From: Candidatus Binatia bacterium
GTDB taxonomy: Bacteria > Desulfobacterota > Binatia > HRBIN30
DNA: 64,000 nt
Direction of reading: 5' to 3'
Assembly (NCBI GenBank): GCA_038245295.1
Contig: JBBRSP010000033.1
Location: forward strand, 1 to 64,000
The notes under the pieces are model-generated. The model did no database searches. It was not told where the DNA came from and worked only from the letters and a program-made list of their open reading frames with translations. Each line of letters begins with the position of its first letter. The stretch's first letter is position 1. Position numbers and translations under genes: made by a program. Positions 56,065-63,515 of this stretch are shown here, one piece after another.

Positions 56065-57813
56065 GTGACGAGCTTGCGAACGCTACTGGTCGAAGACGAT
56101 GCGACGACACGCCGTCTCCTGCAGTCGACCCTGGAAGGGCGCGGCTACGCCGTCACTGCCTGCGCCGATGCCGAAAGCGCCTGGGAAAAATGCCGGCACG
56201 AAGCGTTCGAGATCATGGTGCTCGATTGGCTTCTGCCGGGGATGGATGGTCTCGAGTTGTGTCGCCGCTGGCGCGCTCATCCCGACGGTGATCGTAGTTT
56301 TGTGATCATCCTCACGGGGCGTGACCAGCCGAGTGATCTGCAAGTTGTGCTCGATGCCGGCAGCGACGACTATCTGACCAAACCGCTCGACATCCCACGC
56401 CTGCAGGTTCGCCTGAGCATTGCCGAGCGCCAAATCGAGCACCGTCGACAGCGTAGGCTGGCGGAAGGGAACGCGGCGCGATCGCTCGCCGAGCTGCAGA
56501 AGGCGCACGATGACCTGCTGTTGGTGCTCAACCAGCTGCGCATCGGCTGCGTGATCACCGACGCCGACGGTCAAATCACCTTCTTCAGCGAGGTTTGCCG
56601 GGAGTTGTTCGATGTCTCGCCGTCGCAGGTTCTCGGGCACAGCTGGCAATCCGCGCTGCCGGTGACCCGCGAGGTGCAAGCCGAGCTGCAGCGCATGGTC
56701 GGGCTGCCGCGGCATGATCGCGTTAAGGTCGTGGCGCACGGCGAGGCGGCCAGCGGGACGCGCTTCTCGATCGAAATCGAAGTCAAAGACGATCCGGCCG
56801 ACGCCCAACGTCGGATGTTCTTCGTGTACGATATCAGTGAAGTGCATGACCTGCGCCGTATGCTCAGTGGGCGCGCCCAGTTCGAGGATCTCATCGGCAA
56901 GAGCGAACCGATGCTGCGTGTGTTCCAGCTCATTCGTGACGTCGCTGCCGTCGATGCGACCGTGCTGATCGAAGGGGAGACCGGCACCGGCAAGGAACTC
57001 GTCGCCCGCGCCCTTCACGTGACGAGCGTGCGACGTGATCGCCCGTTCATTGCTGTCAACTGTGCCGGCCTGACGGAATCGCTTCTCGGCTCGCAGCTCT
57101 TCGGCCACAAGCGCGGTGCCTTTACCGGTGCCATCGAGGATCACAAAGGTCTGTTCGAAGCGGCCGACGGTGGGACGGTCTTCCTGGACGAGATCGGCGA
57201 TGTGCCGCAGAGCGTGCAAACAATGCTGCTGCGCGTGCTGCAGGAGCGCGAGGTTGTGCGTCTGGGTGAAACCAAGCCGCGCAAGATCGACGTGCGAGTC
57301 GTGGCGGCAACGCATCACAACCTGACCGAAGACGTCGCCAAGGGAAGTTTTCGCGCCGATTTGCTGTATCGCATACGGGTCGCGCGCATCCATTTGCCGC
57401 CACTGCGGCAGCGTCGGCAGGACATCCCCTTGCTTGCCGCTGCCTTTTTGCGCGAGTTTCGCGCCACGACCGGGAAACGTGTCGAAGACTTTACGACCGA
57501 GGCCATGTCGTTGCTCCTCAACTACGACTGGCCCGGCAACGTGCGCGAGCTGCGCGGTGCCATTGAATTCGCCATGATCCGCGCCGCCGGCAGTATGATC
57601 GGCTCGGCCGACTGGCCGCCGGAGATGCAGATCGGGGCGGACGGTGTTTCCGACGTGCGGATGAACCTGCCGCCGGGAGCCGACGAGGCGCAACGTATTC
57701 TGGCGGCGCTGGAACAATCACGCGGTAACCGCGTTGTTGCCGCCCGTCTTCTCGGTATGAGTCGCGCGACTCTGTACCGGCGCCTGAGCGAGCTCAATCT
57801 CGAGGTCAAGTAA
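56065..57813 (+). CDS. sigma54 enhancer-binding response regulator (REC-PAS-AAA+-Fis HTH)
   Basis: [13 protein letters not shown]-like [45 protein letters not shown]. Confidence 0.95.
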
Positions 57814-57815
57814 GC

Positions 57816-57911
57816 TGTCGCAGTGAGACGCGTGTGCCTGTCTCGCGTCGATGGCGGGCAACCCTTCAGTGCAACGGAGAGAACCGAGCGGGCGTTGGCA
57901 TGCGATGTGCA
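57816..57911 (+). promoter_or_regulatory. sigma54 promoter with candidate upstream activator box
   Basis: TGTCGCAGTGAGAC (57816-57829); TTGGCATGCGATGTGCA (57895-57911, GG-N10-GC). Confidence 0.7.
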
Positions 57912-58655: not shown

Positions 58656-61600
58656 ATGAGACGTGGTGAATTAGACGGCTTGGGCGTCCGTTTGGGCGCA
58701 AATCGGTTCGGCTCAGGTGCCCGACAACGAGGCATGGCGGTCGTGATCTGGACGCTTTGTCTACTTGCCGGGCCAGCCGTGGTGCGGGCCCAAACAACGC
58801 AGCAGTTTTGCGATAGCGTCCCGCTGACCACGACAGACTGGTCTAGTACCGTCAGCCTCACTCGGTTCAACTCGGCCCTTGGACTGCTCACCAACGTCAA
58901 CCTCGCGGTCACGGCAACGATGGTGCAGGACATCAAGCTAGAGAGCCTGGATGCCGCCCCGGCAACCGTTACCGGCACCGGCAACGGAACCATCACCGTA
59001 AATCCCCCGACGGCCCCCGACATTGTCGCCAGCCCGCAGAACGTCGTCGTTCACAACTACACCGCCTTCGATGGTATGACCGACTTTGGCGGCACCTCCG
59101 GCAGCACCGATCTGGGCGTCACGAATTCCACCGTCAGTTCTCGCAATCCGTACACCCCGACGAGCGATTTCGTCGGCGCCGGCAGCGTTACGATGCCGGT
59201 GACGGCCACCGCGACCTTCAATTCCACGGGTGCCGGCAACATCTTGAGCCAGGTTAACACATCTGCCTCTGTTACCGTTTGCGTTACGTACACCTACACG
59301 CCACCGACGGCGACGCGCACGCAGACGGCCACGGTGACGCAAACGCGTACCGCCACCAGCACGCCCAGCAGCACGGCGACGCGTACACCGACCCTGTCGC
59401 CAACGGTTACCGGGACAGCGACGGACACGGCAACACAAACGCCGAGCCGCACGATCACAAATACCCCGACCATCACCAATACGCCGACATCGACCGGGAC
59501 GCCGACATCGACCGGAACACCAACGTCGACCGGAACATTCACCAGCACCGCGACAATCACCGGCACACCGACGCAGACCGGCACGCCGACCGACACGGCG
59601 TCGCCGACGTCGACGCCGACCATCACGATCACACCGACCATTACCGATACACCGACCATAACCGCGACGCCGTCGATCACGCAGACGCCGACCATTTCGG
59701 GCACGCCGACTCGTACTGGTTCACCAACCAGCACCGGAACGGCGACACGTACCGCGACGCCGACGCGGACCAGCACTCCGACGGTGACGCGCACGCCAAC
59801 CATCACGGCGACGCGCACCAGCACCCCGACGCCGACCACGACGCCGGGCAACTCACTCAGTTTCTGCCAGGGCGTCGTCATGCAGACGACGAACTGGAAT
59901 GCGGTGATCTCTCTGCCGAAGTACGATCCGGCCAACGGCACGCTGATCAGCGTTTCGGTCGAGCTCACCGGTTCGATCCTGCAGGATCTGCGCATCGAGA
60001 GTCTCGACTCGTCGCCGTCCAACGTGACCGGTGTCGGCACGGGAACGATTACATTGAATCCACCGTCCGGGCCGGTGATTGTCTCGTTGCCACAGAACGT
60101 CGTCATGGCGAGCTTCACAGGCTTTGACGGAGTCATCGATTTCCTTGGTACGTCTGGCGGGACCTACCTGGGGCAGTTCGCCCAGGATTTCACACAGCGC
60201 AATCCGTATCTGCCGATTGCCGACTACATCGGCCCCGGCACGGTCAACATGCCGATCACCGCGGCTGCCAACTTCAGCGCCATCGGCTCCGGCAACCTGA
60301 TTACCCAGGCGAATACCATGGCCGCTGCTAGTGCCTGCATCGCCTACACGTTCATGCCGCCGACGCCGAGTCCGACGCCGTCGATCACCCCGACGATCAC
60401 TCAGACAGGGACGGTCACCCAAACGCCGACGCGCACCTGGACGCCAACGCGGACCCCGACGCTGATGCCGTCGGCGACGCCGACGCCAACCGGAACACGC
60501 ACACCGACTGCGTCTCCGACACCGACGCCGACGCCGACGATCACCAACACCCCGACACGTACAACGACGCCGATTGCGACGGGCACGTCGACGCGCACCA
60601 TGACCTTTACCCGCACATCGACACCAACCGTAACGCCGACCCGCACGACGACCGTGACGCCTGTGCCGGCATCGCTGGGCGACTTTGTGTGGTTCGATTC
60701 CAATGCCAATGGCATCCAAGACTTCGGCGAGGCCGGCGTCAGTGGGGTTACCGTCAACCTCTACAATGCCAGCAACGTGATCGTTGCCACGACGACCACC
60801 GATGGCAGCGGCCTCTACCACTTTACGAACCTGACGCCCGGCTCCTATTCGGTGGGATTCGTGAAGCCGGTGGGCGCGTCGCTGAGTCCGGCAAACCAGG
60901 GCGGCAACGACGCCGTCGACAGCGATGCGGATGCGGTGACGGGGCGCACGGCCGCTGTGACATTGGCAGCCGGCGATAACAATCTCACCCTCGATGCCGG
61001 TTTGTTCGTGACGGTAAGCGCGTCGCCTACTCCAACGCGAACCCCGACGCCGAATGTGCTCGCGGCTCTCGGCGATTTCGTCTGGCTCGACTCGAACGCC
61101 AACGGCGTGCAGGATTTCGGCGAGCCGGGAGTGAACGGCGTGACGGTAAACTTGCTGAATGCCAGCAACATGCAGATCGCCACGACGACTACGGACCCGA
61201 GCGGCGCCTACCATTTTACGAATTTGCAGCCGGGCACCTATACCGTCGTATTCGTGAAACCCAACGGAGCGTCGTTCACCCGGGCAACCCAGGGTGGTAA
61301 TACGGCTCTCGATAGCAACGCCAACACAACCACCGGCGCGACGAGCCCGGTGACTCTAGCGGCCGGTGACAACAACCTGACGATCGACGCCGGGTTGGTT
61401 GCTGCAAGCGTTCCGACCGTGACACCGACGCCAGGTAGCGTGCTCGCCGCTCTGGGTGACTTCGTGTGGTTCGATACCGATGCGGACGGCATTCAGGATG
61501 CCGGCGAAGTCGGTGTGAATGGCGTCGTCGTTAACCTGTTCAATAGCGGTGGGCAGATCATCGCCTCGACGACGACAAGCCCGGCTGGTGCCTACCTCTT

Positions 61601-63155
61601 CAGCAATCTCACGCCAGGTACCTACTCGGTCGGTTTCGTGGCGCCGAACGGCCTGGTGCTCAGTCCACAAACCCAGGGCTCAAATAGCGCCGTGGATAGC
61701 AACCCGGATCGAACGACGGGCCTCACGGCGCCCGTCACGTTGGTTGGTGGCGAGACCAACCGCACGATCGACGCTGGACTCTATCAACCGGCTGAGCTGA
61801 GCAACTTCGTATGGAACGACAACAATAGGAACGGCATTCAGGATCCGGGCGAGACCGGTGTGCCGGGTACCGTCGTGCAGCTTTTCAATGCGACGACCAA
61901 CCAGCTCTTGGCAACGCAAACGACCGGTAGCGACGGCCTCTACGACTTTACGAATCTTGCGGCGGGGAATTACTATGTGCAGTTCACGCCCCCGCCTGGG
62001 TTCACGTTCACCACGCAAGGAGCGGGCGGCGACCCTGCCCTCGACAGTAATGCCAACCCGACTACCGGCAGGACCGCCGTTGTGACCCTGGTCGGTGGCC
62101 AGAACGACCCGACCATCGACACCGGGCTTTTCCAGCCAACTTCCGCCGCGGATCTACGTATCCTCAAGTCGCACTCGGGCTCCTTTGTCGCGGGCGGTGC
62201 GGGGACCTACACGATCACTGTCACCAACCTAGGCCCGGCGACAACCAATGGCCCAATCACTGTAACCGATACGTTGCCGGCAGGGTTCTCCTACGTCAGC
62301 GGCACGGGTAGCGGCTGGTCATGTGTCGGCAGCGGCCAGGCAGTCACATGTACGAAGTCGACTGCAATCAGCGCCAACAGCATGACCTCGTTGAGTCTGG
62401 TTGTTTCCGTCAGTGCGACTGCCTGTTCGCTCAGCACCAACGTTGCCAATGTAAGCTATGAGGGTGACACCAATAGCGCCAATAACAATGCGGCAGACCC
62501 AACTAACGTCATGAACGCCAGTTGCGTGCCGTTTACCCCCACAAGAACACCCACTGTCGTGGCGCCGACGCAGACGCCGGAGCCGACACTTCCGGTTGGT
62601 GTGCCGACGCGCACCGCGACCGCGACACCGACGGCACTGCGCACCGCAACCCTGCCACCTTCCGACGGCCCATGCCTGGGGACACACAAGCTTAAGTTGA
62701 TCTGGTCGGCGTCGTCCCCCGGCCGTCTGCAGATCAGCTTCTCGGCAACCAAGTGTCCGCCACCGCCGCGGTGTAACTTGCCGGTGATCAGCGGCTCGGT
62801 TGTCGAGCCACCTATCCTGATGCGGTTAACGTCCGCGAACGGGGTCGTGCTTGACGAAGAGCTCCCGGGCGCGCCACTGACGTCGGGCGGCTCGTGTCCC
62901 GGTGGCGTGGATTCATTCTGCCAAGCCCAGTCGTTGGAGTTCCACACCGATCGCGTGCACTTCGTCTATGGGAAGGATGGCTCGACGACGATTCGCGGCA
63001 AGCTCGTCAAGCCGCTCGATCCGCCGATCTTCCCAACGTTGAGCTCGCCGCTAACGATGGTTGTCAGCGATGCGACAGGCATGCGCGCCAACATCACGTA
63101 CTTCTACTGCAAGTCGCGCATCTCGAGCCGTGGCGCGACTGTGCAGTGCTACTAG
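58656..63155 (+). CDS. Giant surface/secreted protein: 2 choice-of-anchor E-like domains, PT tracts, 4 SdrD-B-like repeats, DUF11, Cys-rich C-terminal domain
   Basis: TTDW..SL..F/Y..GTL domain twice; LGDFVW.D.N.NG.QD.GE.GV four times; ADLRILK..YTITVTNLGP..VTDTLP; start may be 58734. Confidence 0.88.
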   Translation: MRRGELDGLGVRLGANRFGSGARQRGMAVVIWTLCLLAGPAVVRAQTTQQFCDSVPLTTTDWSSTVSLTRFNSALGLLTNVNLAVTATMVQDIKLESLDAAPATVTGTGNGTITVNPPTAPDIVASPQNVVVHNYTAFDGMTDFGGTSGSTDLGVTNSTVSSRNPYTPTSDFVGAGSVTMPVTATATFNSTGAGNILSQVNTSASVTVCVTYTYTPPTATRTQTATVTQTRTATSTPSSTATRTPTLSPTVTGTATDTATQTPSRTITNTPTITNTPTSTGTPTSTGTPTSTGTFTSTATITGTPTQTGTPTDTASPTSTPTITITPTITDTPTITATPSITQTPTISGTPTRTGSPTSTGTATRTATPTRTSTPTVTRTPTITATRTSTPTPTTTPGNSLSFCQGVVMQTTNWNAVISLPKYDPANGTLISVSVELTGSILQDLRIESLDSSPSNVTGVGTGTITLNPPSGPVIVSLPQNVVMASFTGFDGVIDFLGTSGGTYLGQFAQDFTQRNPYLPIADYIGPGTVNMPITAAANFSAIGSGNLITQANTMAAASACIAYTFMPPTPSPTPSITPTITQTGTVTQTPTRTWTPTRTPTLMPSATPTPTGTRTPTASPTPTPTPTITNTPTRTTTPIATGTSTRTMTFTRTSTPTVTPTRTTTVTPVPASLGDFVWFDSNANGIQDFGEAGVSGVTVNLYNASNVIVATTTTDGSGLYHFTNLTPGSYSVGFVKPVGASLSPANQGGNDAVDSDADAVTGRTAAVTLAAGDNNLTLDAGLFVTVSASPTPTRTPTPNVLAALGDFVWLDSNANGVQDFGEPGVNGVTVNLLNASNMQIATTTTDPSGAYHFTNLQPGTYTVVFVKPNGASFTRATQGGNTALDSNANTTTGATSPVTLAAGDNNLTIDAGLVAASVPTVTPTPGSVLAALGDFVWFDTDADGIQDAGEVGVNGVVVNLFNSGGQIIASTTTSPAGAYLFSNLTPGTYSVGFVAPNGLVLSPQTQGSNSAVDSNPDRTTGLTAPVTLVGGETNRTIDAGLYQPAELSNFVWNDNNRNGIQDPGETGVPGTVVQLFNATTNQLLATQTTGSDGLYDFTNLAAGNYYVQFTPPPGFTFTTQGAGGDPALDSNANPTTGRTAVVTLVGGQNDPTIDTGLFQPTSAADLRILKSHSGSFVAGGAGTYTITVTNLGPATTNGPITVTDTLPAGFSYVSGTGSGWSCVGSGQAVTCTKSTAISANSMTSLSLVVSVSATACSLSTNVANVSYEGDTNSANNNAADPTNVMNASCVPFTPTRTPTVVAPTQTPEPTLPVGVPTRTATATPTALRTATLPPSDGPCLGTHKLKLIWSASSPGRLQISFSATKCPPPPRCNLPVISGSVVEPPILMRLTSANGVVLDEELPGAPLTSGGSCPGGVDSFCQAQSLEFHTDRVHFVYGKDGSTTIRGKLVKPLDPPIFPTLSSPLTMVVSDATGMRANITYFYCKSRISSRGATVQCY

Positions 63156-63189
63156 TTCTCGCTCCCCACCGATCGCGTGGCGGGGCGAC

Positions 63190-63295
63190 AGTCTCGGTGA
63201 GACAGTTGCCGCGCCGCGGGTGTCTTCGCTGAGACAATCGTCCGTGTGACTTCAGTGTCGCCGCTCCCCAATTCGTGCGTGGCATGTCCGTTGCA
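63190..63295 (+). promoter_or_regulatory. sigma54 promoter with palindromic activator boxes
   Basis: GTCTC-GGT-GAGAC (63191-63203), TGTCTTCGCTGAGACA (63221-63236), TGGCATGTCCGTTGCA (63280-63295). Confidence 0.75.
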
Positions 63296-63305
63296 TTTGG
63301 AGCCG

Positions 63306-63397
63306 TTCTAAGCTCGTGCGAGAAATCGTATGGGCTTCAAGCGGCGCCAGCCTTGGTCCACCCCCCCCCTTCGGACCCTGGTTGGCGCCGTTTTGAA
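63306..63397 (+). ncRNA. Candidate sigma54-dependent small RNA
   Basis: Hairpin AAGCTCGTGCGA-GAAA-TCGTATGGGCTT, then long hairpin with an A-C9-TTC loop followed by TTTT; begins at the predicted +1; no credible ORF. Confidence 0.65.
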
Positions 63398-63515
63398 TTT
63401 CTGGTGCTAAATCTCTCGGGAGATCTGCGCAGCCTGAAGGCTGCGCCTACCAATGCGCAGCGACACGTGCGGGGTAGGGGTAGGCGCAAGCTTCAGCTTG
63501 CGGTGGAGCCGCTAC

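Follow-up and report, generated by a model that had tools for sequence, protein, structure and literature searches.

A two-hairpin RNA encoded near the end of the 64,000-nt stretch of Candidatus Binatia DNA analysed here (the window; contig JBBRSP010000033.1, positions 1 to 64,000) very likely represents an undescribed family of small regulatory RNA genes belonging to one taxonomic family of the Binatia. An annotation made from the letters alone (the original prediction) had described palindromic boxes, a -24/-12 element and two hairpins at this place, and we recovered all of them at the positions it gave (Table 1).

The RNA and its neighbours

Using Pfam, we identified the genes around the RNA (listed 5' to 3'): a sigma54 activator gene 5.5 kb upstream, a single-domain response regulator gene, the gene of an SdrD_B/DUF11 protein, the RNA locus and a convergent gene encoding a TPR protein. 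This convergent gene and a REP pair were also what the original prediction had seen downstream, and the repeat indeed recurs across the genome. We examined whether the RNA element is itself a REP-like genome-wide repeat and ruled this out, as it has one copy in the genome and one per member (two in tandem in relative G007). The locus was seen in one of two DNA sequencing runs, with no listed differences, and no RNA run was listed as containing it; neither result speaks for or against expression.

The large secreted protein upstream ends in a domain of about 155 residues (window 62676-63152), for which Pfam gave no match in the window protein. The same domain ends six large secreted proteins (frames of 1,153-3,351 codons), with other copies at G000:C10, C31, C13 and C3, and possibly serves in sorting or anchoring.

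Table 1. Features of the window around the RNA gene
Feature	Position	Strand	Basis and remarks
Enhancer-binding protein (receiver, PAS, sigma54 activator, HTH)	56065..57813	+	Pfam; orthologues in the order
Second, weaker half-site set and sigma54-like site	57822..57911	+	half-sites score 11.1 and 10.5, the promoter 8.4
Large secreted SdrD_B/DUF11 protein, 1,499 residues; upstream neighbour of the RNA	58656..63155	+	Pfam
Enhancer box 1, palindrome with TGAGACA half-site	63191..63205	+	about 83 nt before the -24 element; half-site score 14.5
Enhancer box 2, palindrome with TGAGACA half-site	63221..63237	+	about 51 nt before the -24 element; half-site score 13.4
Sigma54 -24/-12 promoter element	63280..63295	+	strict consensus; top enhancer-box rank
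Predicted small RNA, about 90 nt	63306..63394	+	ends inferred; fold; best window match to the relatives' model
Hairpin 1: 12 bp, 3 G-U, GAAA tetraloop	63310..63337	+	fold; 6 of 9 modelled pairs changed on both sides in the relatives
Hairpin 2: 18-19 bp, 2x2 internal loop	63339..63393	+	fold; 11 of 22 modelled pairs changed on both sides in the relatives
13-nt apical loop with C9, likely recognition site	63360..63372	+	alignment; unpaired probability 1.00
Palindromic repeat pair, genome-wide; outside the RNA gene	63427..63503	.	many copies on many contigs

RNA structure and coding potential

The plus strand of positions 63306-63400 folded at -53.3 kcal/mol with a z-score of -8.55 that was reached by 0 of 200 shuffles, the minus strand folded at chance level (z -1.36, 21 of 200 shuffles), and the sense strand was the better folder in all ten units of the family. 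By our own rule, hairpin 2 is the most stable among the ten hairpins of the genome with a loop of six or more C. While both hairpins of the original prediction stood, its U-run shrank to 4 nt and no terminator was found; the terminator scan, which returned no site at the RNA, has a loop limit of 8 nt that lies below the size of this loop. The statement that there is no credible ORF held: a 26-codon ATG frame begins inside hairpin 1 and is not kept in relatives. We rejected a coding role for the locus, no reading frame being conserved across relatives. One base is lost in the 3' arm of hairpin 2 in G022 and G024, with another lost in the 5' arm in G024; such losses shift any reading frame, yet the stem is kept. 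An Rfam scan of the window at E up to 10 gave no match over the element, in line with the earlier view that it could not be assigned to a family. The RNA gene is very probably real and non-coding.

Homologues in related genomes

We searched for homologues by sequence, by model and by loop pattern. A DNA similarity search against 40 relatives gave short weak matches only and a one-sequence model run on 51 genomes gave none, and both missed true members. In G007, a promoter behind the activator orthologue drives a non-coding stretch with two tandem two-hairpin units, followed by a convergent gene. G010 carries the same boxes, promoter and loop as the window, on a contig with orthologues of the window HlyD (71%), ABC (69%) and TPR (56%) genes. 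A 10-nt loop search yielded 468 matches in 30 genomes, 180 of which were folded, and added G008 and G018. Across 401 genomes of the class, a 14-letter loop pattern then hit 9 of 25 genomes in the taxonomic family (reversed control, 0) and 8 of 375 outside it (reversed control, 23 matches); eight of the nine in-family genomes fold alike. The search of related genomes that was proposed with the original prediction thus gave homologues in 8 of the 25 other genomes of the taxonomic family, single-copy save for the tandem pair of G007; in its own genome the RNA is single-copy.

Covariation and structure conservation in relatives had been set as tests, and the two-hairpin fold is kept, with covarying stems, in eight genomes. 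Aligned without the window copy, the eight relatives had 96.3% of cells paired and 17 of 31 pairs changed on both sides (0 of 500 shuffles), pair-change counts that are not independent and overstate independence, as five of the eight belong to one genus. Slid-alignment controls were 50-60% paired, and RNAalifold of the relatives returned the same two stems. Once the window copy and the second unit of G007 had been added by fitting, changes on both sides came to 24 of 31 pairs; a fitted alignment of this sort leans to structure. The loop of hairpin 2 is identical in eight of nine units of the relatives and differs by one letter in G008; the final nine letters of the loop, a run of six C followed by UUC, are identical in all ten family units, and its computed unpaired probability in relatives is 0.79-0.99. 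The hairpin 1 loop is short and non-C in 10 of 10 units (GAAA in the window, others including UUCG in relatives).

Rfam gave no match at E up to 1 in eight loci, five distinct members being among them. Run on 26 genomes, a model of all ten units turned up no additional member, its scores dropping from 63 bits to 23.5. Nor did we find one beside 16 further copies of the gene with the C-terminal domain, at 52 loci surrounding relatives of the activator and of the TPR gene, or in the 1.5 kb behind 29 orthologues of the convergent TPR gene; exact loop patterns had 0 matches in metagenome contigs and 0 in viral contigs. Patterns joining a promoter and a C-run matched in 3 of 26 and 14 of 401 genomes, and 48 times in 52 genomes against 31 in the reversed control, mostly by chance (the 52-genome tallies include the unpublished G199, on which no claim depends). 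C-loop hairpins of G006, G011, G017, G025, G028, G036, G038, G033 and G125 failed the family model and are not members, and the loop matches of G016, of G031 and of seven genomes from beyond the order have folds unlike that of the family. The 131 loop matches of G005 are mostly another repeat, with a paired C-run (five loci inspected). These palindromic repeats with C-runs, found in G005 and at L486 (G020), resemble the upper hairpin 2 of the relatives, and it is possible that the loop was derived from a repeat of this type.

Membership of the window copy

We tested the window copy against a model built without it, which gave 21.8 bits, the best of 14 window matches (next, 16.5), with an E-value of 0.0023 for 64 kb that becomes about 0.2 when scaled to the genome. 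Over 19 loci, only the members and the window copy passed E 0.01 with the model built without the window. Filtered genome-wide searches with the relatives' model missed the window copy. When it was compared with each of the eight relatives, the score was reached by 3, 5, 15, 15, 38, 106, 179 and 369 of 1,000 shuffles, so that pairwise likeness is clear for G008 (3/1,000) and G018 (5/1,000) only; the window loop is unlike that of other members in its first four letters.

The neighbourhood is also shared. As in the window, a gene with the C-terminal domain stands directly upstream of the RNA in G018 (40%) and G014 (39%), the stop codon being 207 nt from the C-run in G018, 299 nt in G014 and 208 nt in the window. 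Because the genome has six copies of the domain, of which five resemble the window gene more (41-55%) than the matches of G018 and G014 do, this synteny holds at the level of the gene family. In all, the kinds of neighbour common to the window and members are the activator (G007), HlyD, ABC and TPR genes (G010) and the C-terminal domain gene (G018, G014). From model score and shared neighbours, we are confident that the window copy is a divergent member of the relatives' RNA family.

Sigma54 promoter and candidate activator

The -24/-12 element is one of 20 strict-consensus sigma54 sites in the 6.63-Mb genome and the only one without a same-strand gene downstream, the other 19 having a gene 29-520 nt on (rough gene calls). 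The TGAGACA half-sites upstream of it start at 63198 and 63230, spaced by 32 bp. Of 51 genomes of the order, eight have an orthologue of the activator. In five of these eight, the stop codon is followed by TGAGACA/TGTCTC boxes and a sigma54 site; in the remaining three, these elements stand before the gene (one), lie 5.7 kb off (one) or were not seen (one). We trained a half-site matrix on 43 distinct promoters beside activator relatives, taken from 144 loci of genomes and metagenomes, with at least 4 half-site matches at 100-220 nt behind the activator gene; these promoters lead mostly into mRNAs. Scored with this matrix for upstream enhancer boxes, the window promoter came out on top of the 605 sigma54-like sites in this genome. 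Eight of the 605 have two half-sites, and the enhancer score of the window promoter was matched by 0.015% of 20,000 random windows. Two observations count against linking it to this activator: of the 158 training half-sites, 157 lie farther from their promoter than box 2 does, and about 20 enhancer-binding proteins are encoded in the genome. The second, weaker set of sites lies directly behind the activator gene, with the response regulator gene starting 30 nt on. In G007, the RNA itself is directly behind the activator orthologue. The proposal that the RNA is an output of the neighbouring enhancer-binding protein is thus supported, because the promoter has the binding-site pattern of that protein's family and because of the arrangement in G007, and we consider it likely that sigma54 and this protein drive the RNA promoter.

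Similar sites occur elsewhere. Sigma54 promoters with paired half-sites of the activator family lie at G000:C24:67087 and C24:42866 (both minus strand), before unknown proteins of 85 and 76 codons, and the G000 C10 gene with the C-terminal domain has a sigma54 site and two enhancer half-sites of the same type. At L093-L123 and related loci from other Binatia records, the activator's promoter drives a conserved secreted protein of 163 residues that presumably resembles fasciclin.

Promoter types across the family

Three of the nine genomes with the RNA (that of the window, G007 and G010) combine the boxes with a sigma54 site whose distance from the loop is similar in all three, so the original prediction of sigma54 control stands for these three but not as a property of the whole family. 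The six members from genera g9 and g15 have neither boxes nor a sigma54 site; five of them have a sigma70-like site (TTG-17-TA..T), in four cases at the same distance from the loop. An activator orthologue was found neither in these six genomes (95-99% complete) nor in G010 (81% complete). The RNA is absent in 7 of 8 relatives that have the activator.

Comparison with known small RNAs

We compared the Binatia RNA with four described systems, using the excerpted texts of the papers cited. Pxr of Myxococcus and its relatives is described there as an RNA of about 100 nt whose sigma54 promoter and enhancer lie behind the gene of an NtrC-like regulator, with three stems and a functional C in the loop of the first; it has tandem paralogues in some genomes, some of them with two stems only, occurs in long and short processed forms, controls fruiting-body development and is reported as confined to the Cystobacterineae (PMC5684412, PMC5568312, PMC11928866). 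The placing of promoter and enhancer downstream of an NtrC-like regulator recurs here, adjacent in G007 and 5.5 kb off in the window, whereas in the Binatia RNA, which has two conserved stems, it is the second that carries the C-loop. Both the Rfam model and the published description, as excerpted, set this RNA apart from Pxr. The Pxr model (RF01812) had 0 matches in the genome at E up to 10, with controls that included no myxobacterium, and none in the window scan.

The C-rich apical loops of the 6C RNA of Actinobacteria (RF01066) pair with G-rich leaders without RNA chaperones, according to the excerpts of PMC6486639. Like 6C as described there, the Binatia RNA is short, has a C-rich apical loop and comes from a high-GC bacterium, and Hfq was not found in the five members tested (5 of 14 controls were positive); unlike 6C, which has two conserved C-loops, it has one, on the second hairpin, and it belongs to another phylum. 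The 6C model had no match in the window at E up to 10, and none of five members passed its cut-off, a test of low sensitivity in which the Corynebacterium control also stayed under. In Xanthomonas, sX13 has stable stems whose apical C-rich loops repress mRNAs with G-rich motifs, Hfq being dispensable (PMC3771888, in the excerpted part). The stable stem with an apical C-rich loop is shared; sX13, as excerpted, has three C-loops, shows no Rfam or sequence match to the RNA here, and has no sigma54 link that we noticed in that text.

GlmY/GlmZ of the Enterobacteriaceae offer the precedent for a promoter swap, as conserved small RNAs with sigma54 and an enhancer or with sigma70 depending on the lineage (PMC3045617, excerpted text); their activator site is TGTC-N10-GACA, in contrast to the TGAGACA arrays here, and there is no Rfam match. 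Taken with these systems, the Binatia RNA is wired like Pxr and, by analogy, probably works like 6C. It has the conserved exposed C-loop on a covarying stem that marks the C-loop pairing class (6C and sX13 type), which we use as a working class and not as one family.

Proposed action and targets

The explanation that we favour would run as follows. The receiver-PAS enhancer-binding protein would bind the two TGAGACA boxes and open the sigma54 promoter, as the conservation of its binding sites suggests. The resulting stand-alone RNA would be about 90 nt long and, as covariation in relatives shows, folds into two hairpins, of which the long second stem, by computation, keeps the 13-nt C-rich loop open. 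As in 6C and sX13, the loop may then pair with G-rich sequence close to where several mRNAs begin, lowering their translation without Hfq. In relatives in which no activator was detected, the same RNA would be made from a sigma70-like promoter. We favour this whole account, by a small degree, as an activator-driven sigma54 RNA whose C-loop pairs with G-rich mRNAs; that the RNA acts by pairing with G-rich mRNA is, by analogy, a somewhat firmer proposition, and the mechanism is then probably the already known pairing of a C-loop with a G-rich leader.

The non-coding, trans-acting RNA of the original prediction is supported by the covarying homologues, the near-fixed loop and the differing downstream genes. 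The downstream gene is convergent in the window and G007, encodes HlyD in G010 and encodes a nucleotidyltransferase in at least five of six others. Because downstream genes vary, no frame is kept and the loop stays open, we read the element as a trans-acting RNA with a working loop.

Pairing of the C-rich loop with ribosome-binding sites, also part of the original prediction, did not gain support: a partial target search found no conserved target. Among 5,425 called genes, 110 have GGGGG at -20 to -4, compared with 57 that have it farther upstream, a count inflated by a gene caller that favoured G-rich starts. There are 11 perfect 9-nt complements of the loop in the genome, including the RNA's own locus, and several lie near gene starts. 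Among 73 candidate frames, no family with a real start site was shared. We discarded pilP, whose preceding G-run is absent in all seven other members with the gene, an ECF sigma gene (no match in five of five members), and a 12-nt loop complement in G010 that is not at a gene start.

Alternative explanations

A real RNA whose loop binds a protein and does not pair with mRNA, serving as a decoy or sponge of Rho, for example, or of some other RNA-binding protein that prefers C, would fit a loop of near-fixed length and sequence on stems that vary, the doubled unit of G007 (decoy RNAs carry repeated sites) and the failure to find a conserved mRNA target. That target search was partial, a single loop per RNA makes a weak sponge, and the C-loop RNAs that have been put to the test work by pairing as far as the excerpts of PMC6486639 and PMC3771888 go; for sX13, the excerpted text also records that compensatory changes failed to restore regulation (PMC3771888). 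We regard this protein-binding alternative as unlikely. Less likely still is a more speculative form of it, in which the loop would titrate a C-preferring factor such as Rho, the promoter would have moved between sigma54 and sigma70 with gain or loss of the activator, and hairpin 2 would perhaps stem from a palindromic repeat. Equally doubtful is convergence, by which the element in the window would be a genuine C-loop RNA under sigma54 control that resembles the relatives' family but is not homologous to it. The low model score and weak pairwise likeness of the window copy, and the abundance in the order of unrelated C-loop hairpins behind sigma54 sites, speak for such convergence; against it, the order of the two hairpins, the loop length and the last nine loop letters are shared, as are three separate kinds of neighbours, the box type is that of G007 and G010, and other C-loop hairpins fail the same model.

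Two further readings tie the element to adjacent genes. A cis-acting leader or attenuator would account for the same-strand nucleotidyltransferase gene that follows about 100-800 nt on in at least five of six g9 and g15 members, and for the several members without a clear U-run; with a convergent next gene in the window and G007 and an unrelated HlyD gene in G010, it is very improbable. The hairpins might instead do no more than terminate or shield the mRNA of the gene upstream or of the convergent gene, the promoter being a chance match. Three members do lie just behind a large secreted-protein gene, three other operons of the genome end in C-loop hairpins, and C-rich stem-loops have been proposed as terminators (PMC6486639, excerpted text). 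Yet the upstream gene is directed away in G008, G020, G022 and G024, all members except G014 have a promoter-like site of their own at a comparable distance, and the minus strand folds at chance level, which leaves this terminator role with slightly less room than a cis leader.

Other C-loop elements and significance

We noted further elements with C-rich loops. Three paralogous sigma54-driven operons (G000:C1:260219-260720, G000:C36:34086-34600 and G000:C38:37929-38430), encoding two small membrane-like proteins each, all end in a hairpin with a changed stem and a CCCCUC loop; the C1 copy matches the 6C model weakly, its 31.2 bits falling short of the cut-off. Genus g18 has a separate conserved small RNA (L233, L234, L235 and L260 of G033, G193, G037 and G027) in which the sigma54 site is followed by a free C-run, a C-loop hairpin and a terminator, with a gene just downstream that is probably bioD-like, judging by a motif. 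At L084:9502-9620 and L085:10712-10831 (G028, G025), the promoter behind the activator orthologue is followed by a long hairpin whose loop is C8 or C9; this hairpin fails the family model and precedes the gene of a PAS-containing membrane protein. At L025 (G025) and L259 (G036), a long C-loop hairpin and a related frame of 80 residues come after a sigma54 site; Pfam gave no match for the frame of G025. Longer non-coding stretches with several C-rich loops lie behind sigma54-like sites at L020:1501-1860 (G125) and L249 (G011).

In the open papers, we found no work on small RNAs of Binatia or Binatota. The family reported here is new to the literature, very probably real and of a known C-loop kind. 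With it, small RNAs backed by comparative evidence would be on record for the large uncultured class Candidatus Binatia. Since a candidate activator and the binding motif of its family come along with the RNA, the circuit is testable in a reporter host. It would also be a second case, after GlmY/GlmZ, of one RNA made with sigma54 in some lineages and sigma70 in others.
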